Assembly: GCA_045111335.1 (NCBI GenBank)
Contig: JBGUGE010000002.1
Coordinates: 1,032-65,031, forward strand
Length of the DNA: 64,000 nt
Direction of reading: 5' to 3'
Source: Alphaproteobacteria bacterium
Lineage (GTDB): Bacteria > Pseudomonadota > Alphaproteobacteria > RF32 > CAG-239
A program made the position numbers and the translations under genes. The stretch's first letter is position 1, and each line of letters opens with the position of its first letter. The notes under the pieces were generated by a model. The model was not told where the DNA came from and made no database searches. It was given only the letters and a program-made list of their open reading frames with translations. Positions 3 through 16,625 of this stretch are shown here, one piece after another.

Positions 3-251
3 GAGGTCGGCGCGTGGTTTGCCCTAAACTGGGGATATTTATTGTGGCTGACGGCGACGGATTACGGCATTTTAAACTGGACAATGACTTGGACATCATT
101 TATCGGAACATTACTGTTTTTTGTGCCGATAATTCTACTTGCCGGCGGGGTTCGTCTTTTAAGCAATCGTGCTGTTTTGTGGACATTCTTCAGCCTGATT
201 ATTTTTTATGTGTCAGTTGTCGTTTTGGCATTATCAGTTTTTGACAGATAA
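3..251 (+). CDS. 3' fragment of a membrane protein gene (open at window start)
   Basis: Frame open from position 3 to the stop at 249-251. Hydrophobic segments in the translation. Continues the 42..251 track ORF in the same frame. Confidence 0.35.
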   Translation, partial: EVGAWFALNWGYLLWLTATDYGILNWTMTWTSFIGTLLFFVPIILLAGGVRLLSNRAVLWTFFSLIIFYVSVVVLALSVFDR

Positions 252-281
252 TATGTGTCGTTCTGGTAATTAAAATAACAG

Positions 282-318
282 GCAAGAGTTGAAATATACT
301 CTTGCTCTTTTTATTTTT
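282..318 (+). terminator. Rho-independent terminator
   Basis: Inverted repeat gcaagagt / actcttgc followed by tctttttattttt. Confidence 0.55.
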
Positions 319-818
319 GCCGTATTATATTCTTAATTCAACCTAAAGTAGTACGACTTATCCGCAACAAATAGCAACAACACCGGCGCCATGGTGCAAT
401 CCGGCAACGCAAATTAGCCCGGTGCCGTGGCGAAATAATCAAAACATAACACCGTGGGCGAGAGGATATGATTTGAGTGCGCCGACACAGAGTAATATCA
501 ATACACAATCTATTGATTATTCATTGTATGGAAATGACTTTTCCCGTGAATTCATTGATTAGATGGAAAATGATGAGGAATTTCAAAAAATATTAAATGA
601 ATATATAGTCATCAATGAGTTCTTTTATCCTTTCTTTACTGCTCCAATCACTGCTTTCGTATACGGCATCAATATCTATACCGTGATATAATTCCGCTCT
701 TGCATTTGCACAAAATCTAAAATCAGGCTTTGTCGATATATTATGATATTTTTTTTGCTTGACTTTGACAAAAACATGGTCATACTAAATCCATAAAAAC
801 AATAATTTAAAAACAGTT

Positions 819-1085
819 ATGGATAAATATTACTATGTTTTATTGCTTGTTTGGATAATTGGGATGTTTTGGTTTGTATACGAAATTTTCCGCGGTGTCC
901 AGAGAAATCGGTATATTGCCTATCTGCGCCGTTTGAGCGACGATAAATTGAGGGCACTCTATGCCGAAAAATGGAGAAAGGTAAACATTGCAATGTTTAG
1001 TCGGTACACCGAAACCATGCAGTATGTCGAAGTCATACGTGAAATGGTTCGCCGGCAGATTTATGCGGATACCTATGTTTACTGA
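819..1085 (+). CDS. small membrane protein, unknown function
   Basis: 88-aa ORF with an N-terminal hydrophobic helix. Terminator immediately downstream. Confidence 0.4.
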   Translation: MDKYYYVLLLVWIIGMFWFVYEIFRGVQRNRYIAYLRRLSDDKLRALYAEKWRKVNIAMFSRYTETMQYVEVIREMVRRQIYADTYVY

Positions 1086-1123
1086 AATACAAAAACAAAC
1101 CCCGACTTTGCGGGCAGCGGTTA

Positions 1124-1168
1124 AAAGAAAGACGTGAGCTTAAGCGGCTCGCGTCTTTCTTTTTATTT
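1124..1168 (+). terminator. Rho-independent terminator
   Basis: Stem agaaagacgtgagc / gctcgcgtctttct followed by a T-run. Confidence 0.6.
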
Positions 1169-1270
1169 TAACACAAAAAAATGGGATTACATGCAAGAAA
1201 ATGATTGATTTTTGTCAAAAATAGTGTATGATACTTAGCAAATGTTGAGTTTTTCTGTTCGGGAGAGAAT

Positions 1271-3922
1271 TTGATGAGCAAATACAAGACGCTGAGAGTG
1301 AGACCAAGCTACTACAATGACGGCGAAGGTTCGGTCAGTATATGGAATGAAGAAGACGAAACCAAAAACATCAGAATTATTCAGGATAATTGCGTCATCA
1401 ATGAGGAACAAATTATCAAAATTTATGATTTTTGGTTGAAAAACCCGCAGGCTAAAAGAATATATATTGATAAAGACCGGTCGGTTAACGGGGAATACGA
1501 GGGCGCAGATAGCGAGTTTACCGTATTTTACGGCGATGATAAAGGTGAATATGCAGTTAATTTGGCCGAATTACCGGCGGCCGAAAATGCGGAATTAAAA
1601 GAAGCACTCAACGGCGAAGCAGAAAGATTAAAACAAGAGCGAATTGCCGAAGAAATTGCCCAAGAAAAAGCAAGGGCGGAAGAAGAGCATAAAGAAGCCG
1701 AAAAGCGGATTCAAGAAAAACTCAAACTGCTGAGCGAAAAGAAGAAAATCACGCAAAAAGCAAATAATCCGTTTATGCAATATAAAAAGACGCCGGAAAA
1801 AACCTATAATGATGCGCCGATCGGCACCAAAGTCGAAATTTTGGGCGGTAACAACGAATATCGTATCGGTGCCAGCAGTAAGTTGGTTGAACACAATGAG
1901 CCGGGTAAACCGGTGGCGCGGATTTTGATTGATGACGGGGCGATGTTCCCGCCGGATTGGATTGGCTACGACTCGGCTATTCCGGATATGCGTCGATATT
2001 TCGACAGTCCGTACGGCAAGGCGGAAAAGCCGGTAAGTGCGATGTTTATTACCCACTGTCACGAAGATCATATCGGAGCTATTGTGTTTTTGGCAGCCGC
2101 AAAGTTTAAGCTACCGAAGATTTATACCAGCGAATTTACGGCCAATTTTATCAAAGAACAGATGAGAAACAACAGTGTGCCGGAAGAATTTGTGCCGGAG
2201 TTTGAGATTATCCGCCAGGGTGAATATGTCGAAATCGGCGATAATATGAAAGTTTCTCCGTTCAATATACCGCATTCAACGGCGGGTGCTCTCGGGTTCC
2301 ATATCGGCACCACTCTTGACGGCAAAGACAATGCGGGTTTGGTATTTACCGGCGATTATCATATGGATAACGTTCCGTTCGGACCGAGTTTCAGTGAAGA
2401 AGATCTCAAAAAATTTATGGCCGGCAAATATGTTTCGCACATTTTAATGGACTCAACATCGGCAACTACCGATATGTATGATGAGAACGGCAATCGCCTG
2501 ATTCCGGATTTCAATAAGGCGGTGGAAAATACGGTGCGCGAAATTACCAAACATCCGGAAAAGCAGATTTTTTCGCCGGTGATTGCCCGCAGTGTGCAAA
2601 ATTTAGCCATTGACATCAAAGCAGCGGCCGAAACCGGACGTACGATTTTAATCGGCAGTCGCGGTTTGCGGCAGGCGGTGAAAGATTTGCTGCTGATAAT
2701 TCGCAATAAAGACCGTTGGGTAAAAGAAAAGATTTTGCAAATCAAAAAAGAAGCATATCAGGCGCGGCAGAAGGCGCAAAGCGAGGGCAAACCTTGCTTT
2801 TATGACGAAGAACAACGGATTGCCGAAGCCAAACTCGATGCGGAAGTTATTTCGGATATGATGCGGCTTTCTTCGGGCGAAAAAATCGATTTGGAAAAGG
2901 TTATTTATAACGCTAGCGATTTGGATAATACCGATATTCAGAAGTATTTGAACAAATATCCGCCGCAAGAACGCTATATGATTATCAGCGGTGCATTTGC
3001 TGAAGATAAAGCCGATCGCAAGTCGACACTGGTGTTGATGAGTGAGCAAAATAAGGCAACCATTGATAAAGACGGTAAGATTAAAGGCAAGGGGGATACC
3101 GGACATCCGCTGTTTACGGTGGATAACAATACCCTGATTATGTTACGCCAGCGGCCGATTGAATCGATTAACGGAGCAAAACATCGTGCGGTGGTGGCTA
3201 AGTTGCAGAGTTTGGGGGCTACGGTGATTACCAACGGCGATACGATTGATACCAAATATCAGCGTACCGGCCATGCCACCAGAGAGGAAACGTTGCGCTT
3301 GCACAAACTGACAATGGAAAACTGCAAGAATGCCGCCGCGTTTGCCGACGGTTCGCAACGCATTATCGATATTGCGGTGCACGGCGATCAGGAACAGTTG
3401 CCGGCGATGCTCGAGGTGGTAAAGCAGCATAACGGTGTGCCGTTGCTGTGTATGAATACCGATGCGATTGTGATTGATCAAAGCGGTACCTATAAAGAAC
3501 AGGGTGTCCCGTTTGAGCAGCAAAAATGGATTTGTGTACAAGCACAATGTATTGTGGGTTCGGGCAGTAATAATTTGTTTGTGTTTGATCGCTGCGACCA
3601 TAATTTGATGTTTGAAGAGCATTTATTTACGGTAATGAACGTACAGGCACGCAAGAGTGCGAGAATTGACGGCGATTATATGATGCGCAAGGCGGTGGAG
3701 AAGGCTGAAGAAATGGTGGAAAAAGAAGGTATGTCCGCCTCAAATATCGAAATTCGTATGCAAAAGCAATCTAAGCATTATAAAGACAGACGCGGCGAGA
3801 ATACGCGCATGACTTATCAGGAGTGGTTGGAACAGCAAGAATCTAAGCCGAAAGGCAAGTTCGGCCGCAAACAAAAGAAATTCAACCGCCGTAAAGGGTA
3901 TAACGGCGGTGGTCGCGAATAA
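1271..3922 (+). CDS. RNase J-like beta-CASP metallo-beta-lactamase fold ribonuclease with ~230-aa N-terminal (Glu/Lys coiled-coil) and basic C-terminal extensions
   Basis: Motifs ILIDDG, FITHCHEDHIGA (HxHxDH), PHSTAGA, FTGDYHMD and ILMDSTSAT match the RNase J MBL/beta-CASP motif order (vIDcG, HGHEDH, HS.PgS, YTGDFK, LLSDSTN). 883 aa. C-terminal tail is KGKFGRKQKKFNRRKGYNGGGRE. Confidence 0.55.
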   Translation: MMSKYKTLRVRPSYYNDGEGSVSIWNEEDETKNIRIIQDNCVINEEQIIKIYDFWLKNPQAKRIYIDKDRSVNGEYEGADSEFTVFYGDDKGEYAVNLAELPAAENAELKEALNGEAERLKQERIAEEIAQEKARAEEEHKEAEKRIQEKLKLLSEKKKITQKANNPFMQYKKTPEKTYNDAPIGTKVEILGGNNEYRIGASSKLVEHNEPGKPVARILIDDGAMFPPDWIGYDSAIPDMRRYFDSPYGKAEKPVSAMFITHCHEDHIGAIVFLAAAKFKLPKIYTSEFTANFIKEQMRNNSVPEEFVPEFEIIRQGEYVEIGDNMKVSPFNIPHSTAGALGFHIGTTLDGKDNAGLVFTGDYHMDNVPFGPSFSEEDLKKFMAGKYVSHILMDSTSATTDMYDENGNRLIPDFNKAVENTVREITKHPEKQIFSPVIARSVQNLAIDIKAAAETGRTILIGSRGLRQAVKDLLLIIRNKDRWVKEKILQIKKEAYQARQKAQSEGKPCFYDEEQRIAEAKLDAEVISDMMRLSSGEKIDLEKVIYNASDLDNTDIQKYLNKYPPQERYMIISGAFAEDKADRKSTLVLMSEQNKATIDKDGKIKGKGDTGHPLFTVDNNTLIMLRQRPIESINGAKHRAVVAKLQSLGATVITNGDTIDTKYQRTGHATREETLRLHKLTMENCKNAAAFADGSQRIIDIAVHGDQEQLPAMLEVVKQHNGVPLLCMNTDAIVIDQSGTYKEQGVPFEQQKWICVQAQCIVGSGSNNLFVFDRCDHNLMFEEHLFTVMNVQARKSARIDGDYMMRKAVEKAEEMVEKEGMSASNIEIRMQKQSKHYKDRRGENTRMTYQEWLEQQESKPKGKFGRKQKKFNRRKGYNGGGRE

Positions 3923-3952
3923 ACCGAGTCATCAAGTTTTGCGGCAGAGTCT

Positions 3953-4711
3953 TTATTTGGTGCGTTTTTCCAGCATTGCGGCGCATATTTTTTGGAAGAA
4001 GAAACGTTCTTTACAGCGATCAAACGGTTGCCAGCCTTCGTCGTTTACGGCGTCCATATCGGCACCGGCGGCTACCAAATATTTTGCCATTTGCACATTA
4101 TCAAATCTGACCGCATGGTGAAGTGCGGTATAGCCGTCAGGGGCTTTGGCATTAACGTCGGCACCAGCATCTATCAGCAGCTTGACCGCGTTGTCGGCAT
4201 TATTTTTTGCCGCAAACAGCAATGGCGTTTCACCCTTTGAATAATATTCCTGCGATACCATTTCCAAATCCGGATGATACGGCATAACTTTATCCAAACA
4301 TTGTGCGTTATGCTTACTGTCAAGCATATAAAAGTACAGAGAGCCTTTAAAGCCGTCAATCCGCTCATACATAATATCTATTCCGCCCTCTTGCAGAATT
4401 TTATCCAGAGCCTCGCAATCGCCGTCCTTAATTGCATCCATTATGCCGTTTACCATATTTTCTTTTTTTATTCCTTCTTTGTCGCATCTGATTTTGCGGC
4501 CGGTACGATAATTATATTTCGGTGTCCATGCCTCGCCCGGACAGGTTGGTGAGTCAATACAGTTGGTCAGCGTTTTCACCCACACAATGCCGTCTTTACA
4601 TCTTTCGGAACCGATTGGTGCGGAATCTTTGGAATACACTTTGCCGGCATACCCCGCGGCCATACCCAAAACAAACAATAATCCTAAAGTTATAAATGTT
4701 TTCTTTTTCAT
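3953..4711 (-). CDS. secreted ankyrin-repeat protein
   Basis: N-terminal signal peptide MKKKTFITLGLLFVLGMAAG. Cys-rich module. At least 3 ankyrin repeats (TPLLFAAKNNADNAVKLLIDAGADVNA; GYTALHHAVRFDNVQMAKYLVAAGADMDA). Confidence 0.7.
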   Translation of the reverse strand: MKKKTFITLGLLFVLGMAAGYAGKVYSKDSAPIGSERCKDGIVWVKTLTNCIDSPTCPGEAWTPKYNYRTGRKIRCDKEGIKKENMVNGIMDAIKDGDCEALDKILQEGGIDIMYERIDGFKGSLYFYMLDSKHNAQCLDKVMPYHPDLEMVSQEYYSKGETPLLFAAKNNADNAVKLLIDAGADVNAKAPDGYTALHHAVRFDNVQMAKYLVAAGADMDAVNDEGWQPFDRCKERFFFQKICAAMLEKRTK

Positions 4712-4714
4712 TTT

Positions 4715-5731
4715 CTACTCCTTTGCCTCTTGTTTTTGTTGCATTTGGGATTGTAAAATATTCCTCAATCGCTCAATCCTGTCCTGAAAGTCTTTGGATT
4801 TTACATGGTTAATCGCACGTATATAAGAAATGGGAAATTGCAGATCCTTCTCAGAAATGCCGTCCGTATCGGCACCATTTTTGATTAATACGGCAGCAAT
4901 ATTGGCACTATTATTTTCTATGGAATACTTTAATAATGATTCTCCGTTTTTAGCTTTAGCATTAACATCTGCACCGGCTTTTATCAGTGCAACCGCTATG
5001 TGGTTACTGTGCATATCGATGGTACGTTCTAATAACGATTCTCCGTTTTTGTCTTGAGAATCCGTAGGCAAACCGTTTTCCACCAGCCATTTTATAATTT
5101 CATGGTCATCATTTTTGAACGCATCATTTACAATCGTCGATATTTCATCGTCATCTTCACTTAGGGGCTTTTTCTGCAACAACAGCATTCGGGTGGCTTG
5201 TTTCCTATTTTTACCGTACGCATATTGTAGCGGTGTTTTATCATTAAATTTTATGGCATTAACATTAATTTTGGCAGAATAAACCTCCGGAATACACTTC
5301 TCGGCATAGTCTATTATGTAATAAAGCAACGGCATCAGCTGTCGGTTTTCAGAATAAACCGTTGTACTTAAATAATCTGCCGGATTATCTTTCCACAATT
5401 TTGCCGCCTTTTCGCAATTTCCTGCCGTCAACGCTTCGCCGATTTTTCGCAGTTTATATTCTCGAGGATTTTTTATTTTATCTGCTTTTTCCGCATTTCC
5501 GCATTTGATAACACTTCCGGTAAAAGGATGCTGTTTATTCTGCCAAGAACAGCGCATCGGCATATCTATGCAATCACAGTAATTACAATGAAGCACCTGA
5601 AGTTTACCGCCGACACACCTTTCTTTTTCCGTAGTGTCCTCACTCATATCACGATACCATTGCCAACCTATCCCTATAAGAGCCAGCAAAATCACACAAA
5701 CGATACCCCAAATAATTTTCTTTTTCATCAC
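4715..5731 (-). CDS. secreted/membrane-anchored ankyrin-repeat protein (paralogue of 3953..4711)
   Basis: N-terminal TM/signal region. Cys-rich module (CVGGKLQVLHCNYCDCIDMPMRC). Ankyrin repeats (ESLLERTIDMHSNHIAVALIKAGADVNAKAKNGESLL...). Confidence 0.7.
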   Translation of the reverse strand: MMKKKIIWGIVCVILLALIGIGWQWYRDMSEDTTEKERCVGGKLQVLHCNYCDCIDMPMRCSWQNKQHPFTGSVIKCGNAEKADKIKNPREYKLRKIGEALTAGNCEKAAKLWKDNPADYLSTTVYSENRQLMPLLYYIIDYAEKCIPEVYSAKINVNAIKFNDKTPLQYAYGKNRKQATRMLLLQKKPLSEDDDEISTIVNDAFKNDDHEIIKWLVENGLPTDSQDKNGESLLERTIDMHSNHIAVALIKAGADVNAKAKNGESLLKYSIENNSANIAAVLIKNGADTDGISEKDLQFPISYIRAINHVKSKDFQDRIERLRNILQSQMQQKQEAKE

Positions 5732-6369
5732 CTGTTCCTTTTATCTTTGCTTCGGCAGTATTCGTAAATCGGGCATTTATCGCACAGCGGCTTTTGCGCC
5801 TTGCAGGTATAGCGGCCGAACAGTACCAGCCAATGATTGGTGTTGACAGTCATTTCCGGCGGCAGAACTTTCAGCAAATCCTTTTCTATTTCAAGCGGGG
5901 TTTTACCGCGGCTGAAATCAAGCCGGTGTGCAATTCGCATAACGTGGGTATCAACCGCTAAGGTCGGTTGATGGTACCACACATTCATCACTACATTGGC
6001 GGTTTTACGCCCCACACCGGCAAGCGTGGTCAACACATCACGGTCAGCCGGGACTTCGCCGCCGAAATCGTCGACTAATTGCCGACTCATCAGCATAATG
6101 TTTTTGGCCTTGTTATTGAACAATCCTATGGTTTTGATATGATTTTTGAGTTTTTCTTCGCCGAGAGAGAGCATTTTTTGCGGCGAATCGGCAATTTTGA
6201 ATAATGCCTCAGTTGCTTTATTAACCCCTTTATCGGTACTTTGCGCCGATAAAATCACCGCTACCAACAGCGTGTACGGATTATGAAAGTGGAGTTCGCA
6301 TTGCGGGTTGGGATTTTCGCGTTCAAAAATCCGCATAATCTCGAGGATTTCCTTTGGCGAACGCGTCAT
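5728..6369 (-). CDS. nth: endonuclease III
   Basis: HhH-GPD motif (LLVAVILSAQSTD), [4Fe-4S] Cys cluster CKAQKPLCDKCPIYEYC. 213 aa. 4-nt overlap with tsaD. Confidence 0.85.
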   Translation of the reverse strand: MTRSPKEILEIMRIFERENPNPQCELHFHNPYTLLVAVILSAQSTDKGVNKATEALFKIADSPQKMLSLGEEKLKNHIKTIGLFNNKAKNIMLMSRQLVDDFGGEVPADRDVLTTLAGVGRKTANVVMNVWYHQPTLAVDTHVMRIAHRLDFSRGKTPLEIEKDLLKVLPPEMTVNTNHWLVLFGRYTCKAQKPLCDKCPIYEYCRSKDKRNR

Positions 6370-7454
6370 GCTTTAACTCCTCCGGCACCCGGAGCCTTAG
6401 GGGCGGCCTCATCAAGCGGCCAACGCGGACGCGGTTTGAAATCAAGTTCATTGGTATATCCCAAGCGATAGCGCTCCAAACCGGCCCAAGCTACCATTAC
6501 TCCGTTATCGGTGCAAAAACGAATCGGCGGCGCGGCAAATTCCAAATCGTTGGCAAAAGCCAATTCTTTGAGCGCGTTGCGCAAATAAGTGTTGGAGGCA
6601 ACACCGCCCGAAACCACCAAATGCTCGCCTTCCGGATATTTTTGTTTGAAGTAGGCAATTGCGCGCTCTAATTTGCGTACCAAACAATCGGTCGCAGTCA
6701 TCTGAAAGCAGGCGCAGATATCGGCTACGTCCTGTTTAGGTAAAATTGCGTGTTCGACCAAACCATCTGGCGAATAAGATTCGATGATTTTGCGCACTGC
6801 GGTTTTTAAGCCGGAAAATGAGAGATTGCAATCGCCGGAATTTAAGAGTGGTCGCGGCAATGTGAAGCGTGAATCATTGCCGATAGCGGCCATTTTTTCA
6901 ATCATCGGTCCGCCCGGATAGCCCAAACCGAGCATTTTTGCAACCTTGTCAAAGGCTTCGCCGGCGGCATCGTCGATGGTAGTGCCGAGACGTTCGTAGT
7001 CTCCGACATTCTTTACCACTAAAATCTGACAATGTCCGCCCGAAACCAGCAGTAATAAATACGGAAAACGGATGTCGTTGGCAATTCGGGCGCAGAGGGC
7101 ATGACCTTCCAGATGATTTACCGCAACAAACGGCTTGTTAAGTGCCAATGCCAAAGCCTTGGCCGTCATTGCTCCGACCACCACGCCACCGATGAGCCCC
7201 GGCCCGCATGATGCGGCAATTGCGTCAATATCCTTAAGCTCGGTATGGGCGCGTTGCAGGCACAGCGATACAATCTCGTCAATATGCTCCAAGTGGGCGC
7301 GTGCGGCAATCTCCGGCACTACACCACCGTATTGTTTATGTTCTTCTTGTGATTGCAGAGCTTCGCCTAAAATCTCTTTGCTGTCACTTACAATCGCGGC
7401 TCCGGTATCATCACAGCTGCTTTCTATTCCCAAAACAATCATCGTTTTTTCCAA
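6366..7454 (-). CDS. tsaD: tRNA N6-adenosine threonylcarbamoyltransferase
   Basis: MIVLGIESSCDDTGAAIV N-terminus. Kae1/Gcp/TsaD family length and His-rich metal-binding region. Confidence 0.85.
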   Translation of the reverse strand: MEKTMIVLGIESSCDDTGAAIVSDSKEILGEALQSQEEHKQYGGVVPEIAARAHLEHIDEIVSLCLQRAHTELKDIDAIAASCGPGLIGGVVVGAMTAKALALALNKPFVAVNHLEGHALCARIANDIRFPYLLLLVSGGHCQILVVKNVGDYERLGTTIDDAAGEAFDKVAKMLGLGYPGGPMIEKMAAIGNDSRFTLPRPLLNSGDCNLSFSGLKTAVRKIIESYSPDGLVEHAILPKQDVADICACFQMTATDCLVRKLERAIAYFKQKYPEGEHLVVSGGVASNTYLRNALKELAFANDLEFAAPPIRFCTDNGVMVAWAGLERYRLGYTNELDFKPRPRWPLDEAAPKAPGAGGVKA

Positions 7455-7543
7455 AAATGATTTTTATTCACTCACTTTAAACTATTTGTGTTATAAATAT
7501 ATGAAATATATTCGGTTCAAATGTCAAGAAAAAGGATACGAAA

Positions 7544-8662
7544 ATGGCTAAAAATGATAAAAAAATTAACACCATACCGGCAGAAGATAAACAGCCGGAG
7601 GTGATTTCGGCAGTAAAACCGGCACCGGAGCCGCATAAACCGGAGCCGCATAAACCGCCGCACCCGGCCGAACCGCCGCATAAAAAACGCCACGGGTTGC
7701 GTAATTTTGTGTTGTTTATTATCCTTTTGGCTGTCGGTGCCGTCGGTTATTTGACCATGCAGTTGCGCCAAACCGAAAAGCTTAATACCGAAGCTTTGAA
7801 TAAGTTGCAACAAGCGTATGATGAAAAATTGAATAAAGTAACCGATAGAGTTAATATCTTAGACAGAGAAGTCGTCGGGTTGAAAAATCGGCCGATTGTC
7901 GAGCATGCCGCAGGTATCAGCGAAAATCAGCTTAATCAAAAATTGGCGGCGTTGCGCGACGAGTTGATGCATCGTTTGGGCGCAACGGATATTGCAAAAG
8001 AAACCGTTGAAGGCAAACCTGCACAAGAAACGGCCGAAAATACGGGAGTTGCCGATATCCCGCCGTTTACAAGTGTGACGCAATCCGAAAAGACTACACA
8101 AGAGATTCTGCTTGCCAGCGGGGCAATTATTGTGCGCGATTTGGCCGAACAAGGGGTTGATTTTGCTTATGAGGCCGAGGTGTTGCAAATTTTGGCACAA
8201 GGAAACGATTTGGCGGCAAAAAATGTGCAAATTGTTCGTAGCTATGCTAATTCCGGCATTACTGGTAAAAACAAACTTATTCGCGCTTTTGATAAAATTT
8301 TTGCGGAATTGAATACCGCGGAAACAAAATCGGAAACCGCCAAAGCGCAGAACACCGAAGTTGAAGCAAAATGGTACCTAAAGGTATGGAATTGGATTAA
8401 GTCTCAGGTAATTGCTAAGAAACGTGCGCAAAAACCGGTGTTTACGCCGCAAAAAGATGAAGTTTTGGATTTGGTAAACGAAGGTCGTTTGCAAGATGCA
8501 TTGAATGCCCTACGCATCAGCGAGAAGTATTCTAAGGTCGATTCCGAGCCGTTGCGCCAATGGCGTATGCAAGCGGAACGGTATTTGGAATTTGACAGCG
8601 CCATCAATGCCGTGATTATGAACGCATTAGCCAATATTCGCTTAAAGGAAATGGAACATTAG
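7544..8662 (+). CDS. membrane-anchored coiled-coil protein, Mic60/HemX-like (mitofilin-domain) candidate
   Basis: Pro/His-rich N-terminus with PEPHKP tandem repeat, one TM helix, coiled-coil, conserved C-terminal helix pair (LRQWRMQAERYLEFDSAINAV). Architecture as in alphaproteobacterial Mic60. Confidence 0.35.
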   Translation: MAKNDKKINTIPAEDKQPEVISAVKPAPEPHKPEPHKPPHPAEPPHKKRHGLRNFVLFIILLAVGAVGYLTMQLRQTEKLNTEALNKLQQAYDEKLNKVTDRVNILDREVVGLKNRPIVEHAAGISENQLNQKLAALRDELMHRLGATDIAKETVEGKPAQETAENTGVADIPPFTSVTQSEKTTQEILLASGAIIVRDLAEQGVDFAYEAEVLQILAQGNDLAAKNVQIVRSYANSGITGKNKLIRAFDKIFAELNTAETKSETAKAQNTEVEAKWYLKVWNWIKSQVIAKKRAQKPVFTPQKDEVLDLVNEGRLQDALNALRISEKYSKVDSEPLRQWRMQAERYLEFDSAINAVIMNALANIRLKEMEH

Positions 8663-8665
8663 GAG

Positions 8666-10054
8666 ATGACGGCGGATTTGCTGAAAATATGGCATCGGGC
8701 ATACGAAATTGTGCCTGAGCAGTTGAAGCGCGCGGCAAAAGTCGAGCGCGTTGCCACAGCTTTCAATACCAATATCGATGCCGTTGTTAAAATAAGCGGA
8801 AAGCGATTGTCCGAGCTTGCCGCAGAAGTCGGTATGAAATCTGCAGATTTACAAAATCCGCAAACAAAGTTGCACACGCCGCAAGATGCGGTGCGCGGAA
8901 TCAGCAAATGTTTTATCAACGGAATAGCCGAAGAATGGCTGTGTGATGACAAAGAGGTTTATACATGGCTTGAAGAGCATCTCGGTTGTAAACGGTTGCA
9001 AATGGGCGGACAGGCAGGGATTATTGCCAATGTGTCGGCGATTTTGGGGGTGCAACAGGTTTATGCTCATACCGCTGCGCATCCGAAATTAATGGCCGAG
9101 CAATTTGTTGATGCCGATAATTTATGTGCTTTTGCCGCGGACGGCACGAAACAAAAAGCGCGTGAGGTTAATCGCGACGGTGAAGAGCCGCCGATTCATC
9201 TGATTATGGAATTTGACGCCGGCGATACTCTGAGTTTGGATAACCAAATTTATATTTGCCCGAAATCTAATCGTTTTATTGCGACTTATGATACGGTTAA
9301 TACTGCGCTGAAAATCAATGACGGATTTGTAAAATACATTGATAGTCTGGGGTTTGATTTTATGATTTTGTCGGGCTTTCATGCTTTAACAGCGGAGCAC
9401 GGCGGGTTGCAGCGGATTGCCGAAACATTGCCGCTGATAAAAAAATGGAAACAAGCGAATCCGAACGGAATTATTCATTTAGAACTGGCATCAACTCAGG
9501 ATTTGGCAGTGCGGCGGGCTATTTTGGAACAATTGGCGCCGGTGGTGGATTCGCTGGGCTTGAACGAGCGAGAAGCTTTAGAAGCGGAAGAAATTGTTGC
9601 ACCCAAGAGAGATGCGCGGAACAATTTGAATGCTGTCGCGTTGCTCAATATTTTGCTTGAGCTGAAACAAAAATTGCAAACACCGAGGATTCAGTTGCAT
9701 TTTTACGGGATGTATATGACCTTGCAAAACAAAGATTTTCCGATTACTCCGGAGCAAAATAAACGCGGGATGATGTTGGCGGCCACGGTGGCGGCATCTA
9801 AGGCTGCTACTGGAAATATCGAAATTAAGAGCAATCTTTTGCAGGCTCACGGCAGGCAAATCGGGGAAAAATCGCTACAGAATTTATGTGAGTTGGCAGC
9901 GGCCTTGAACAATTCGGCAGTAAGCGAATCGGGAATAACCGAATGCGGAGGATTTGATTTAATTGCCGTACCGACGATTTTGGCGGAAAAACCGCTGACT
10001 TTGGTGGGTATGGGTGATACAATTTCAGCCGTATCGCTGATTGGGGCAAGATAA
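8666..10054 (+). CDS. ADP-dependent sugar kinase (ADP-dependent glucokinase/phosphofructokinase family, PF04587)
   Basis: Family motifs in order: NTNIDAV, RLQMGGQAGIIANV, IHLELAS, HFYGMYMTL, C-terminal GMGDTISAVSLIGA. 462 aa matches family size. Confidence 0.8.
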   Translation: MTADLLKIWHRAYEIVPEQLKRAAKVERVATAFNTNIDAVVKISGKRLSELAAEVGMKSADLQNPQTKLHTPQDAVRGISKCFINGIAEEWLCDDKEVYTWLEEHLGCKRLQMGGQAGIIANVSAILGVQQVYAHTAAHPKLMAEQFVDADNLCAFAADGTKQKAREVNRDGEEPPIHLIMEFDAGDTLSLDNQIYICPKSNRFIATYDTVNTALKINDGFVKYIDSLGFDFMILSGFHALTAEHGGLQRIAETLPLIKKWKQANPNGIIHLELASTQDLAVRRAILEQLAPVVDSLGLNEREALEAEEIVAPKRDARNNLNAVALLNILLELKQKLQTPRIQLHFYGMYMTLQNKDFPITPEQNKRGMMLAATVAASKAATGNIEIKSNLLQAHGRQIGEKSLQNLCELAAALNNSAVSESGITECGGFDLIAVPTILAEKPLTLVGMGDTISAVSLIGAR

Positions 10055-10157: not shown

Positions 10158-10631
10158 ATGGCTAGAGTTACAGTTGAAGATTGTATTGATAAACTTCCGA
10201 ATCGTTATGAGTTGGTTTTGGTTGCGGCGCAACGCGCCAAAGATATTTCTGCCGGTTCCATGATTTTGGTTGACCGTGATAACGATAAAAATTCGGTGGT
10301 TGCTTTGCGTGAAATTTCCGAGAATCGCGTCAGCATTGAAGATTTGCAGGAATCTTTGGTTAAGAATCAGCAAAAGTTGGTTGAGATTCAAGAGCCGGAA
10401 GATGAGGAAGTCGAGATTATTTCGGCCGAGAAAGAGTTAGCGTCTTTGGGCGTTCAGTTCTCCAGCGATATGATCAGCGACGAGGATTTGAACAATGTTA
10501 TGCAGATTCATGACGGTACCGAGGATGATGACAACTTAGATTTGGATTCCGATGTTGATGATATTGATTTTGACGACAGCGCCGATTTCGGTGATGAATC
10601 ATACGATGACGATATGGATGATTTAGATTAA
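10158..10631 (+). CDS. rpoZ: DNA-directed RNA polymerase subunit omega with long acidic C-terminal tail
   Basis: [31 protein letters not shown]-terminus. Located upstream of rsh. 157 aa with a D/E-rich C-terminal ~60 aa. Confidence 0.85.
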
Positions 10632-10715
10632 AAAAATCATAAATTTAACTTTTATTAAAGCAAAACATATTATATAAATAGGGTATGTTTTGCTTTTTTA
10701 TTTAGAGGGTGTGCC

Positions 10716-12857
10716 ATGTTACGGCAATATGAATTGGTCGATTTGGTAAAATCTTACGATCCGTATGCGGACGAAGATGCGCTCAATCGTGCCTATGTGT
10801 TTGCCCTAAAAAAACATGGTTCGCAGTTGCGTACTTCCGGCGATCCGTATTATTCACACCCGATTGAGGTTGCCGGTATTCTCACCAAATATAAGCTTGA
10901 TTCGGCTTCCATTATTGCTGCCCTGTTGCATGATACGGTTGAAGATACCGATACTACCCTTGATGAAATTAAAGAGCTTTTCGGTGATCAGGTGGCGCAA
11001 TTGGTGGACGGCTTAACCAAATTGGCCATGTTGGAGCATAAATCCGGTTCCAGTAAACAGGCGGAAAACTTCCGCAAACTGTTGCTTGCAATGAGTGAGG
11101 ATATTCGCGTTTTGCTGATTAAATTGGCTGACCGATTGCACAATATGCGCACTTTAAGGTTTTGTCCGCCGGATAAACGTGCTCGCATTGCGCGTGAAAC
11201 GCTTGATATTTATGCACCTCTGGCCGAGCGTATCGGTATGGAGGAACTCAAGGAAGAAATGGATGAGATTGCCTTTGCCGAGCTGTATAAAGATGCTCAT
11301 GATTCCATTGTGACGCGGTTGAATTTTTTGCGTGAGCAGGGCAATGACGTAGTGCCGAAAATCATTAAGCAACTTGAAAAAGATATGGAAGATAACGGCG
11401 TGCATTGTACCATCACCGGTCGCGAAAAAGCTCCGTATTCGATTTGGCGTAAAATGCAGCTGAAAAATGCATCGTTTGAGCAACTGTCGGACATTATGGC
11501 TTTTCGTATTTGTGTGGATACGGTGGCGGATTGCTATCAGGCTCTCGGTATTATTCACAGCAAATATCATATGGTGCCGCGTCGTTTTAAGGACTATATT
11601 TCTACCCCGAAGCCGAACGGTTATCAATCGTTGCATACCGGTGTTATCGGGCCTTTGGACGTGCGAATCGAAGTGCAGATTCGTACTTATGAAATGCATG
11701 AGGTCAACGAAAAAGGTGTGGCGGCACACTGGGCATATAAACAGGGACAGCATACCGAGGGTAAAAACTTCCGTTGGGTACGCGAGCTTTTGGAGATTCT
11801 CGATCAGGCTCAGAATCCGGATGAGTTTTTGGAAAACACCAAGCTTGAAATGTATAACGACCAAGTGTTTTGTTTTACGCCGAAAGGGGACTTAATCGGC
11901 CTGCCGATGGGTTCGACGCCGGTTGATTTTGCGTATGCCATTCACTCTAATGTGGGCAATACCTGTGTCGGGGCTAAGATCAACGGCGAAATCAAGCCGC
12001 TCAGAACCATTTTGCAAAACGGTGACCAAGTCGAGGTGCTAACCGCCAAAAATCAACACCCGTCGCTTGAGTGGGACAGATTTGTGGTGACCGGAAAAGC
12101 CAAGGCGGCTATTCGTCGTTATGTGCGGATTAATAAGCGTGAGCAATTTATTGCTCTGGGCAAGGAAATCGTCGAAAAACTGTTTAAATCGGAAGATCAG
12201 GAGTTTTCGGAAAAAGAGCTGGTGTCGTATTTATCCAATTTTGAGGCGGAAACGGTTGATGATGTTTATGCCAAAGTCGGCGAAGGTTTGGTAACCGGTT
12301 GGGATGTGTTGCGTGTAATGCATCCGGCGTATCGTCAGTCCAAATTAGAAAAAGTGGTGAGTGCCATCAAGCTACCGGTATTCAGCAAAAAGAGTCAACC
12401 GAAAAAAGATTCGCTTAAGATTCGCGGCTTGATTGACGGTATGGCAATGCATTTTGCCGGTTGTTGCCACCCGTTGCCGGGCGACAGGATTGTCGGGATT
12501 GTAACTACCGGTAAAGGGGTTACCATTCACACGGTTGATTGTCCGTCTTTGCATAATTATGAAAACGAGCCGGAGCGGTGGCTCGATGTGGATTGGGGAC
12601 CGGATGCCGAGCAGGAAAAGCACGTTGCACGCCTTAAACTTATGCTCAGCAACGAGCCGGGGGCATTGGCCGAGGTGGCAAATATCGTAGCCAAAGCGGA
12701 AGCTAATATTATTAACTTGAATATTACATATCGCACACTAAGTTATTTTGAAATATTGCTCGATATTGAAATTAAAAATGTTGAACAATTAAACAGCTTA
12801 ATTATGAATATGCGCGCCGAAAAACTCATCAGTTATGTCGCCCGCGCCAACAAATAA
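10716..12857 (+). CDS. rsh: bifunctional (p)ppGpp synthetase/hydrolase
   Basis: HD domain (HDTVEDT), synthetase domain, TGS and C-terminal ACT domains. 713 aa. Confidence 0.9.
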   Translation: MLRQYELVDLVKSYDPYADEDALNRAYVFALKKHGSQLRTSGDPYYSHPIEVAGILTKYKLDSASIIAALLHDTVEDTDTTLDEIKELFGDQVAQLVDGLTKLAMLEHKSGSSKQAENFRKLLLAMSEDIRVLLIKLADRLHNMRTLRFCPPDKRARIARETLDIYAPLAERIGMEELKEEMDEIAFAELYKDAHDSIVTRLNFLREQGNDVVPKIIKQLEKDMEDNGVHCTITGREKAPYSIWRKMQLKNASFEQLSDIMAFRICVDTVADCYQALGIIHSKYHMVPRRFKDYISTPKPNGYQSLHTGVIGPLDVRIEVQIRTYEMHEVNEKGVAAHWAYKQGQHTEGKNFRWVRELLEILDQAQNPDEFLENTKLEMYNDQVFCFTPKGDLIGLPMGSTPVDFAYAIHSNVGNTCVGAKINGEIKPLRTILQNGDQVEVLTAKNQHPSLEWDRFVVTGKAKAAIRRYVRINKREQFIALGKEIVEKLFKSEDQEFSEKELVSYLSNFEAETVDDVYAKVGEGLVTGWDVLRVMHPAYRQSKLEKVVSAIKLPVFSKKSQPKKDSLKIRGLIDGMAMHFAGCCHPLPGDRIVGIVTTGKGVTIHTVDCPSLHNYENEPERWLDVDWGPDAEQEKHVARLKLMLSNEPGALAEVANIVAKAEANIINLNITYRTLSYFEILLDIEIKNVEQLNSLIMNMRAEKLISYVARANK

Positions 12858-16512: not shown

Positions 16513-16529
16513 TGCTCTTTCTTTATTTG

Positions 16530-16625
16530 AAGGCGAAGGGACTTAGACCTTGCGACTATCGTTACGGCTGCTTCCTTCCGAATCTGACCGAGTTGGCGAA
16601 AACACAATCCTAAGCCCTTCATAAA
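16530..16625 (-). ncRNA. ffs: signal recognition particle RNA (4.5S/SRP RNA, small bacterial type)
   Basis: Minus-strand sequence ...gucagauucggaaggaagcagcc... matches the conserved domain IV motif. 5' gaagggcuuagg pairs with 3' cuaagucccuuc. Sits directly upstream of dnaX. Confidence 0.75.

Follow-up and report, generated by a model that had tools for sequence, protein, structure and literature searches.

A candidate strongly diverged RNase J with a facultative N-terminal module in uncultured gut Alphaproteobacteria

RNase J belongs to the pair of main organisers of RNA decay in bacteria. It is known chiefly from work on Firmicutes, Actinobacteria, Helicobacter and a small number of Alphaproteobacteria. 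A stretch of 64,000 nucleotides from an Alphaproteobacteria bacterium (GenBank assembly GCA_045111335.1, contig JBGUGE010000002.1; hereafter the window) encodes a protein in which the motifs of RNase J are embedded in a polypeptide of almost 900 residues. Is this protein the organism's own RNase J, strongly diverged, or is it an additional nuclease with some other task? The initial annotation of the locus, made from the sequence alone, left the choice between a divergent RNase J and an extra paralogue, possibly directed against a host. Here, we describe a computational analysis of the gene, its relatives and their chromosomal surroundings. We conclude that the gene is probably an orthologue of RNase J, strongly diverged and specific to its lineage, in a clade of rumen and gut Alphaproteobacteria that have not been cultured, and we weigh the alternatives where the evidence bears on them.

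Catalytic core and relationship to RNase J

The catalytic body carries five core motifs in the order found in RNase J: IDDG (residues 219-222), HCHEDH (261-266), PHSTAGA (333-339), FTGDYH (358-363) and MDSTSAT (392-398). The initial annotation had listed these same motifs and had named their failure to align with the catalytic residues of RNase J as grounds for abandoning the assignment; when the alignment was made they coincided with the catalytic residues of canonical RNase J. Motifs B (TGHA, H667) and C (VHGD, H703), which were absent from that list, are also present, with motif B reading TGHA rather than the SGHA of RNase J and motif C VHGD rather than PxHGE. In an alignment of 55 homologues (alignment A1), whose members are as little as ~26 % identical, all 55 retain D220 (motif 1), H261, H263, D265 and H266 (motif 2), H334 (motif 3), D361 (motif 4), D393 (motif A), H667 and H703. 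A catalytically dead scaffold derived from RNase J might be expected to show the strong divergence and the scores under curated thresholds that are reported below, but the invariance of every metal-binding and catalytic residue at this depth of divergence makes such a scaffold hardly credible.

Comparison of profiles and of folds leads to the same family. When hhalign compared the family profile with one made from 25 sequences of canonical RNase J, the probability was 100 % (E = 1.3e-39) over 463 columns, covering residues 180-791. With the family alignment as input, an AlphaFold2 model reached a predicted local distance difference test (pLDDT) score of 85.6 and a predicted template-modelling score (pTM) of 0.73, and the 42 best matches of this model in a Foldseek search of the PDB were all bacterial or archaeal RNase J, with template-modelling (TM) scores normalised to the target of 0.65-0.81. 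Structures of CPSF73, aCPSF1 and Integrator (IntS11) ranked under all RNase J structures, and the protein scores only 20 bits against the aCPSF1/CPSF73 model TIGR03675, whose cut-off is 580. A phmmer search of PDB sequences likewise returned RNase J proteins (best E = 1e-12). Thus the invariant motifs, the profile-profile homology and the nearest folds together identify the catalytic body as that of an RNase J, and they support the first of the two readings in the initial annotation.

The same results bear on whether the protein might instead be a DNA-acting beta-CASP nuclease of the SNM1/Artemis kind, perhaps engaged in repair with the radC-like gene that lies two genes downstream in 44 related loci. 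The loss of the canonical RNase J C-terminal domain would suit this idea; however, no SNM1/Artemis or other DNA-acting beta-CASP structure is among the top 50 fold matches, the nearest folds and profiles being all RNase J, and the protein does not qualify as a member of the SNM1/Artemis group. Furthermore, the SGHA-like loop for the 5' phosphate is kept and motif C is an invariant histidine. Callebaut and colleagues defined the beta-CASP family in 2002; within it, histidine at motif C is reportedly a signature of RNA processing, and the DNA-acting SNM1/Artemis enzymes are said typically to have valine. We regard a DNA-acting enzyme as very unlikely.

Several observations weigh against assigning the protein to RNase J. 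Its best NCBIfam matches, RnjA (NF047419) at 98.9 bits and TIGR00649 at 90.5 bits, cover only profile positions ~7-259 and fall far under the respective cut-offs of 820 and 400 bits. Pfam recognises only the generic Lactamase_B_2 and Lactamase_B domains (residues 246-362), and RNaseJ_b_CASP (PF22505), RMMBL (PF07521) and RNase_J_C (PF17770) find no match in any of the proteins P0001-P0060, this protein included (P and L numbers denote database proteins and loci, respectively); only from P0066 on do the proteins carry the Pfam signature domains of RNase J. The canonical C-terminal domain is not detectable, as the hhalign alignment stops at residue 791 and leaves the last ~90 residues unaligned, again with no match to PF17770. 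Additionally, the core evolves fast, being 45-69 % identical in amino acid sequence in pairs of loci whose map products are 87-98 % identical, and it has been exchanged between lineages (see below), which is unusual for a housekeeping RNase. We therefore file the protein as a strongly diverged RNase J variant rather than a standard member, since every catalytic element is homologous to RNase J but the curated thresholds are failed and the canonical C-terminal domain is absent.

How has the protein come to be so much longer than its canonical relatives? We mapped 319 residues beyond canonical RNase J, so that the excess of ~330 residues given in the initial annotation was about right, but the excess does not lie mainly at the two ends, as that annotation had it. 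The additional residues comprise ~164 at the N-terminus, ~100 in insertions within the beta-CASP domain, 13 between motifs B and C, and only ~25-35 at the C-terminus. The largest beta-CASP insertion is 52 residues long (479-530) and occurs only in a subclade of members of at least 700 residues; the others measure 8-16 residues. The RNase J core begins with 'GTKVEILGGNNEYRIGA' at residue 185, which reduces the N-terminal region from the ~230 residues claimed to ~183, while the Glu/Lys-rich helix claimed for it is indeed present at residues ~115-163.

At the other end of the protein, a small alpha/beta subdomain sits where the C-terminal domain of canonical RNase J would be, with no detectable sequence homology to it. 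In the RNase J enzymes that have been studied, this canonical domain matters for dimerisation and activity. The subdomain is followed by a tail rich in Lys, Arg and Gly, as the initial annotation had described. Its pattern '...KxK...RGGR' is kept throughout the family, every short form that lies among housekeeping genes included, and because of this conservation we regard the tail as a trait of the family and probably not as an export signal of this one protein. It is most simply read as a putative RNA-binding tail.

RNase J enzymes hydrolyse single-stranded RNA by a two-metal mechanism in the cleft between the MBL (metallo-beta-lactamase) and beta-CASP domains, acting endonucleolytically or, on 5'-monophosphate ends, as 5'-to-3' exonucleases (PMC4652760). 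By homology, H261, H263, D265, H266, H334, D361 and H703 would build the two-metal centre of the protein in the corresponding cleft, and the motif-B loop T-G-H667-A would help to hold the 5' phosphate. The enzyme would then cut single-stranded RNA internally and degrade it 5'-to-3' from 5'-monophosphate ends, and in this way may contribute to rRNA maturation and mRNA decay. Around this presumed active site the beta-CASP domain appears to have been remodelled by its several insertions. The small alpha/beta subdomain and the Lys/Arg/Gly tail would together stand in for the canonical dimerisation domain, with the tail perhaps binding RNA or the ribosome non-specifically.

Genomic setting and the conserved promoter element

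The reading frame is uninterrupted on the + strand from 1271 to 3922, as initially described, and yields 883 residues if read from the TTG at its first codon. This TTG is the first start codon in the frame, but probably not the one used. The likely start is the ATG at 1274, the second codon of the frame, because it lies 7 nt past the Shine-Dalgarno sequence GGGAGAG and agrees exactly with the start of the database protein P0001 (882 aa, beginning MSKYK). Upstream, a terminator hairpin with a minimum free energy of -26.7 kcal/mol (z = -6.58; 0 of 200 shuffled sequences fold as well) parts a preceding 88-aa open reading frame (ORF) from the gene's own promoter, so that the nuclease gene forms a separate transcription unit. 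The gene had been described as flanked by strong terminators; this holds upstream (z = -6.6) and does not hold downstream, where a search for a hairpin or terminator found none (z > 0 on both strands). Features of the gene and its product are collected in Table 1.

Table 1. Features mapped at the nuclease locus (window coordinates)
Feature	Position	Strand	Basis or detail
Intrinsic terminator of preceding 88-aa ORF (819-1085)	1123..1163	+	18-bp stem, then T-run
Gene-specific promoter/operator candidate TTGATTTTTGTCAAAAATAGTGTATGAT	1205..1232	+	-35 TTGATT, 16-nt spacer, -10 TATGAT
Shine-Dalgarno GGGAGAG (1261-1267) and probable start ATG (1274-1276)	1261..1276	+	Sequence reading, start of P0001
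CDS, RNase J-family beta-CASP metallo-beta-lactamase nuclease, 882 aa + stop	1274..3922	+	
N-terminal head domain, residues 1-100, b1-b2-b3-a1-b4-b5-b6, facultative	1274..1573	+	AlphaFold2
'PxAEN(A/P)EL' helix, ~50-residue Glu/Lys helix (residues ~115-163), disordered linker (residues ~160-183)	1574..1822	+	AlphaFold2, alignment of module-bearing homologues
MBL domain, N-terminal part (approximate boundaries)	1823..2473	+	Invariant residues, RNase J alignment
MBL residue codons	D220 1931-1933; H261/H263/D265/H266 2054-2071; H334 2273-2275; D361 2354-2356; D393 (motif A) 2450-2452		
beta-CASP domain, residues ~401-660 (approximate boundaries), with family-specific insertions	2474..3253	+	hhalign against canonical RNase J
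52-aa helical insertion in beta-CASP domain, residues 479-530	2708..2863	+	Alignment, AlphaFold2 helices 479-504 and 512-529, insertion map
MBL domain, C-terminal part and linker	3254..3658	+	Motif B T665-G-H667-A (H667 3272-3274), 13-aa insertion at residues 681-693, motif C H703 (3380-3382)
Small C-terminal alpha/beta subdomain	3659..3844	+	AlphaFold2: helix 797-818, strands 825-831 and 843-847, helix 848-857
Disordered Lys/Arg/Gly tail, residues 858-882	3845..3919	+	11 K+R, 6 G, 1 acidic; pLDDT < 50

Does the gene behave as a core gene of its lineage? About 60 close homologues of 640-880 aa were found, which, where they are named at all, are entered as 'MBL fold metallo-hydrolase [Alphaproteobacteria bacterium]'. 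Scanning one genome per GTDB species returned 152 relatives, of which the best 80 were examined; nearly all of these 80 came from uncultured Alphaproteobacteria of the rumen, other ruminant gut, or the gut of humans, chickens, rabbits and mice. No isolate was seen twice among these best 80 of the 152 loci, so that the nuclease gene seems to be present in one copy; a search of the 64-kb window for another RNase J-like gene found none. When neighbouring ORFs were clustered across 81 loci (the c numbers used below), alaS stood beside the gene in 40 loci and a TspO/MBR gene was divergent and directly upstream in 53, and directly downstream stood map in 45 and radC-like JAB genes in 44. Loci with the arrangement alaS-tspO-[gene]-map-radC include members only 26-40 % identical to the query. 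A graded series leads from the family toward recognised RNase J, through ~600-aa forms in alaS-tspO-map-radC synteny to ~540-aa forms with an N-terminal 'GGNN' motif, which are annotated as ribonuclease J and contain PF22505. The initial annotation had proposed that relatives of the same length in clear housekeeping synteny would argue against an unusual nuclease; the housekeeping synteny is there (40-53 of 81 loci) and the constant length is not, owing to the facultative N-terminal module. From these sequence comparisons, we read the gene as having diverged vertically within the gut clade as an RNase J orthologue.

Two further observations concern these loci. Five of them (L028, L029, L037, L041 and L070) carry the labels Bacteroidaceae, [Ruminococcus] gnavus, Eubacteriales or Lachnospiraceae, and have the same gene, alaS-tspO-map-radC synteny and promoter element; probably the bins bear wrong labels or contain contaminating DNA. 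An ORF of 155 aa with no Pfam match (c5) accompanies the alaS-tspO-nuclease block in 24 loci, where it lies between alaS and the genes upstream (for example L030:4437-4904, - strand).

The gene also has a promoter of its own, which is kept across the clade. Alignment of the DNA upstream of alleles with and without the N-terminal module revealed that the 28-mer TTGATTTTTGTCAAAAATAGTGTATGAT is invariant where the surrounding intergenic DNA has diverged, and within the 64-kb window this sequence is unique even when up to 3 mismatches are allowed (0 expected). The spacer between its -35 and -10 hexamers contains the palindrome ATTTTTG.T.CAAAAAT. The consensus of 55 species loci, TTGc.TTTTGTCAAAAA..gTGTATgAT, carries 1.56 bits per position, compared with 0.62 and 0.31 for the DNA on its two sides. 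In its general form, TTG-N2-TTTTGTCAAAAA-N3-TGTAT(G/T)AT, the element precedes the homologous gene of L002-L074 by ~55-75 bp. In the 1.29 Mb of DNA retrieved, the 11-mer core TTTTGTCAAAA would be expected 0.85 times per strand; it occurs 58 times, and 52 of these occurrences are just upstream of the nuclease gene. In many loci a second TGTCA/TGACA motif follows ~22 bp farther upstream. The element was found neither in the ~540-aa forms nor, as regards the palindrome, on the contigs of other module-bearing proteins. Binding of RNA polymerase does not need a conserved promoter spacer, and since this spacer is conserved nevertheless, the simplest reading is that the palindrome is a candidate operator for a conserved regulator.

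In the lineage of the window (the window, L004, L005, L007, L009 and L013) the alaS-tspO-map-radC arrangement has been lost; the gene is flanked instead by c16 and c17, with dnaX-ybaB-recR nearby, and in the window this last block is inverted (~14.5-20.3 kb). On the 3' side of the nuclease gene the window has two ankyrin genes, nth and tsaD. The ankyrin genes (3953-5731, - strand) are separated by 30 bp from the end of the nuclease gene, to which they are convergent, and encode ankyrin-repeat proteins of 252 and 338 aa with hydrophobic, Cys-rich N-termini resembling signal peptides; they may point to contact with a eukaryotic host, for instance rumen protists.

These neighbours had given rise to the suggestion that the nuclease itself is a secreted, host-directed effector, with the basic tail as a type IV secretion signal and a functional tie to the ankyrin proteins. 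The positive charge of the tail, the signal-like N-termini of the adjoining ankyrin-repeat proteins and the occurrence of the N-terminal module in large, low-complexity, effector-like proteins are compatible with that idea, as are the type IV secretion/pilus-like genes that adjoin the ~540-aa RNase J of the distant loci L075, L076, L078 and L081. However, the initial claim of adjoining secreted ankyrin effectors stands only as far as the two genes of the window: in the 80 loci from related species neither was found next to the nuclease gene, and distant ankyrin matches were limited to a weak one in L041 and one downstream of the ~540-aa form in L081. As the housekeeping arrangement has been lost in the window lineage and the ankyrin neighbours are unique to it, we consider the adjacency incidental. 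Moreover, the nuclease gene is read from a promoter of its own and faces the ankyrin genes head to head, with the result that they are not co-transcribed with it; the tail belongs to the whole family, in housekeeping surroundings too; and no N-terminal signal peptide is evident by inspection, although no predictor was run. The apparent single copy among the best 80 loci and the presence of the gene in at least 152 species genomes fit an intracellular core function. The suggestion of a host-directed nuclease is thus not supported, and we judge a secreted effector to be highly improbable.

Around the ~540-aa forms other gene neighbours are found. In environmental alphaproteobacterial metagenome-assembled genomes (MAGs), a secretion/pilus-like cluster lies directly upstream of the ~540-aa RNase J gene (L081, cluster at 3-9581 and RNase J at ~10000; also L075, L076 and L078); it contains T4SS_TraI (PF16932), a T2SSE-type ATPase, a TcpQ-domain protein and 3-4 paralogous proteins of 450-515 aa without Pfam matches, and in L081 a 371-aa ankyrin-repeat protein follows the RNase J. 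The paralogues (c43, L075-L081) were considered as nuoL/M/N, after the rhizobial order nuo-birA-rnj, and this was rejected, as they have no Pfam match and neighbour T4SS_TraI, the T2SSE-type ATPase and TcpQ. Nor was a link found between the ~540-aa form and the studied Sinorhizobium/Rhodobacter type, its homologues being all from uncultured MAGs.

Elsewhere near the locus the window is ordinary chromosome, with nth, tsaD, spoT/rsh, dnaX-ybaB-recR, rsmI, secA and a signal recognition particle (SRP) RNA. The last is of the bacterial small type (RF00169, 59 bits) and lies at 16529-16623 (- strand), with the dnaX-ybaB-recR block on one side and a periplasmic binding protein gene on the other. At 8666-10054 (+ strand) the window encodes a 462-aa protein with a full-length match to ADP-specific phosphofructokinase/glucokinase (PF04587, 239 bits), a mainly archaeal type of sugar kinase that is unusual in an alphaproteobacterium.

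The facultative N-terminal module and exchange of alleles

The N-terminal extension of the window protein consists of a novel head domain of ~100 residues, a charged helical stretch of ~60 residues and a linker with a conserved NNPF/Y motif (residues ~160-183). When head and first helix (residues 1-115) were modelled alone, AlphaFold2 returned a confident fold (pLDDT 88, pTM 0.84). This module had no match in Pfam, PHROG or PADLOC, and a search of its fold against the PDB and against predicted viral structures (BFVD) gave nothing significant (best E = 0.07 and 0.016, TM <=0.35). A hidden Markov model of the module matched 20 clusters among 1.84 billion representative proteins.

Within the nuclease family the module is restricted to a minority of members (P0001-4, P0007-9, P0032 and loci L003-L006), and its presence varies between otherwise near-identical alleles. 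Proteins of 863 and 710 aa fall into one cluster at 90 % identity; L005, which has the module, shares its flanking genes and intergenic spacing with L007 and L013, which lack it, as L006 does with L002; and the cores of L004 (with) and L009 (without) are 99 % identical. An explanation of the 710- and 863-aa members by alternative start calls was rejected, as the short forms have an N-terminus of their own (MARAKQNIGTKV...) and the DNA displays a clean in-frame indel. The module is under purifying selection, with a ratio of nonsynonymous to synonymous substitution rates (dN/dS) of 0.08-0.12. Its dS is 0.16-0.21, two- to four-fold lower than the 0.45-0.73 of the core in the same gene pairs, which suggests that the module may have been exchanged more recently than the core.

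Outside the family the head domain is found alone in proteins of 131-165 aa, in tandem, or as the N-terminal part of unrelated proteins of 465-816 aa, which have no Pfam match and represent at least four architectures. Because it occurs in these several contexts, we judge it to be a portable accessory domain. These proteins (P0251-P0262; genes L085:1862-5992, L083:141-4101 and L082:2042-3496) stem from ruminant-gut and other metagenome contigs, with a GC content of 39 % in L082 and 32.5 % in L083 against 44.5 % in the window. The head-domain gene of L085 lies directly after a gene for an 890-aa Zeta-toxin-domain protein, and that of L083 near a phage ANT antirepressor gene. The facultative cassette carried by the window's allele and a minority of others would act outside catalysis, as cores 99 % identical occur without it; a role in partner binding or oligomerisation is our conjecture.

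Exchange extends to the core gene. From the junction of module and core to ~250 nt beyond the stop codon (L004:~10500-12800), L004 and L009 are 97-100 % identical in nucleotide sequence, whereas the flanks (c16, c17) are only 55-73 % identical upstream and 51-59 % downstream, and the proteins of the next genes 50-87 %. The left breakpoint of this mosaic coincides with the module/core junction. Recombination mosaics were also seen at L005, L006, L007 and L013. The core of the window protein is 78 % identical to that of L002, which stands in the tspO/map/radC context, and only 61-64 % identical to the cores of L004-L013, though the products of dnaX, recR and c18-c20 are 82-95 % identical. These alignments mark the core gene as a recombination hot spot. 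In every segment of the gene dN/dS is ~0.1.

Such exchange raises the question of genetic conflict, which can be framed in two ways. In the first, the gene would be a specialised extra paralogue, for example an anti-phage or anti-mobile-element nuclease or a frequent target of phage inhibitors; it would coexist with a canonical RNase J encoded at another site of the genome, and the module would serve as sensor, decoy or partner recruiter. The fast evolution of the core relative to its neighbours, the confinement of the L004/L009 mosaic to the ORF, the on/off module with its low dS, the sharing of this module with uncharacterised proteins, one beside a Zeta-toxin-domain protein and one by a phage ANT gene, and the RNase J scores under threshold are what such a paralogue might show. 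Nevertheless, P0001 has no PADLOC match, and a family member, P0038, only a weak generic MBL match; neither the N-terminal module nor the C-terminal 180 aa match any PHROG; two scans of viral contigs gave no meaningful matches to the family; and among the best 80 loci each isolate has one copy. Purifying selection throughout, and stable housekeeping synteny with a dedicated promoter over more than 50 species, are unlike defence islands. We consider a paralogue of this kind rather unlikely.

In the second, the gene would be the RNase J locus itself, under ongoing genetic conflict or rapid adaptation: whole-ORF alleles would sweep by homologous recombination, and the 5' cassette of head and helix would be swapped on and off, possibly with the invariant promoter and the conserved first core codons as homology arms. 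The head would then be a portable domain for targeting or partner recruitment, shared with effector- or toxin-like proteins, and could redirect a core RNA-decay enzyme, for example toward or away from a factor derived from phage or host. This, too, is a minority possibility. We still grant the conflict-related readings a low probability mainly because recombination limited to the ORF and fast evolution of the core are unusual for a housekeeping RNase; a strongly diverged orthologue of RNase J remains the probable identity of the gene.

Comparison with known RNase J enzymes and significance

How does this probable RNase J compare with those already described? It shares with the bacterial enzymes of known structure (B. 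subtilis J1, 3zq4; T. thermophilus, 3bk1/3t3o; M. tuberculosis, 7wnt; S. coelicolor, 5a0t) the MBL and beta-CASP body and the order of motifs 1-4 and A-C, but is only ~15-22 % identical to them in structural alignments. It differs further by its ~100 residues of beta-CASP insertions, by a small subdomain and basic tail in the place of the C-terminal domain, and by the facultative N-terminal module.

The nearest precedent for an N-terminal addition is the RNase J of Helicobacter pylori (7pcr, 8cgl), which likewise has a lineage-specific extension. No homologous structure can be recognised for its 132 aa either; in vitro the enzyme needs the extension for full activity, though not for binding of the helicase RhpA (PMC3592473). 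The two differ in that the Helicobacter extension is fixed in its genus, whereas the module described here comes and goes among near-identical alleles and is shared with unrelated proteins. No sequence similarity between module and Helicobacter extension was detected, the phmmer alignment to 8cgl being confined to the core (residues 176-414 against 135-353). Chloroplast RNase J of plants (P0094-P0096, ~900 aa) has also been lengthened by fusion to an accessory domain, but there a canonical core is joined to a C-terminal GT-1/Myb-like domain, a type known to bind DNA (PF13837).

The nearest recognised relatives are the ~540-aa 'GGNN' forms (P0066-P0074, P0069 group), 30-36 % identical over the MBL half. 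Like the present family they have 'LGGNN.RIG' at the N-terminus in place of the canonical 'LGG..EIG', and they too are without RNase_J_C. In contrast to it they carry PF22505, score 163-190 bits, have neither basic tail, beta-CASP insertions nor N-terminal module, and stand in another synteny with no conserved promoter element.

Curated models miss this family, and databases say of it only 'MBL fold metallo-hydrolase'. As its divergence takes it past these models, inventories of RNA decay in rumen and gut Alphaproteobacteria are likely to be mis-annotated. The loss of the dimerisation domain together with the gain of a basic tail constitutes a natural experiment on the rewiring of oligomerisation and RNA binding. 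The N-terminal module is a small, confidently folded domain without known relatives, and the pairs of alleles with and without it on 99 %-identical cores are ready for functional comparison. Finally, the palindromic element in the promoter, invariant as it is, suggests that a conserved regulator controls the expression of RNase J, for which the spacer may serve as the operator.

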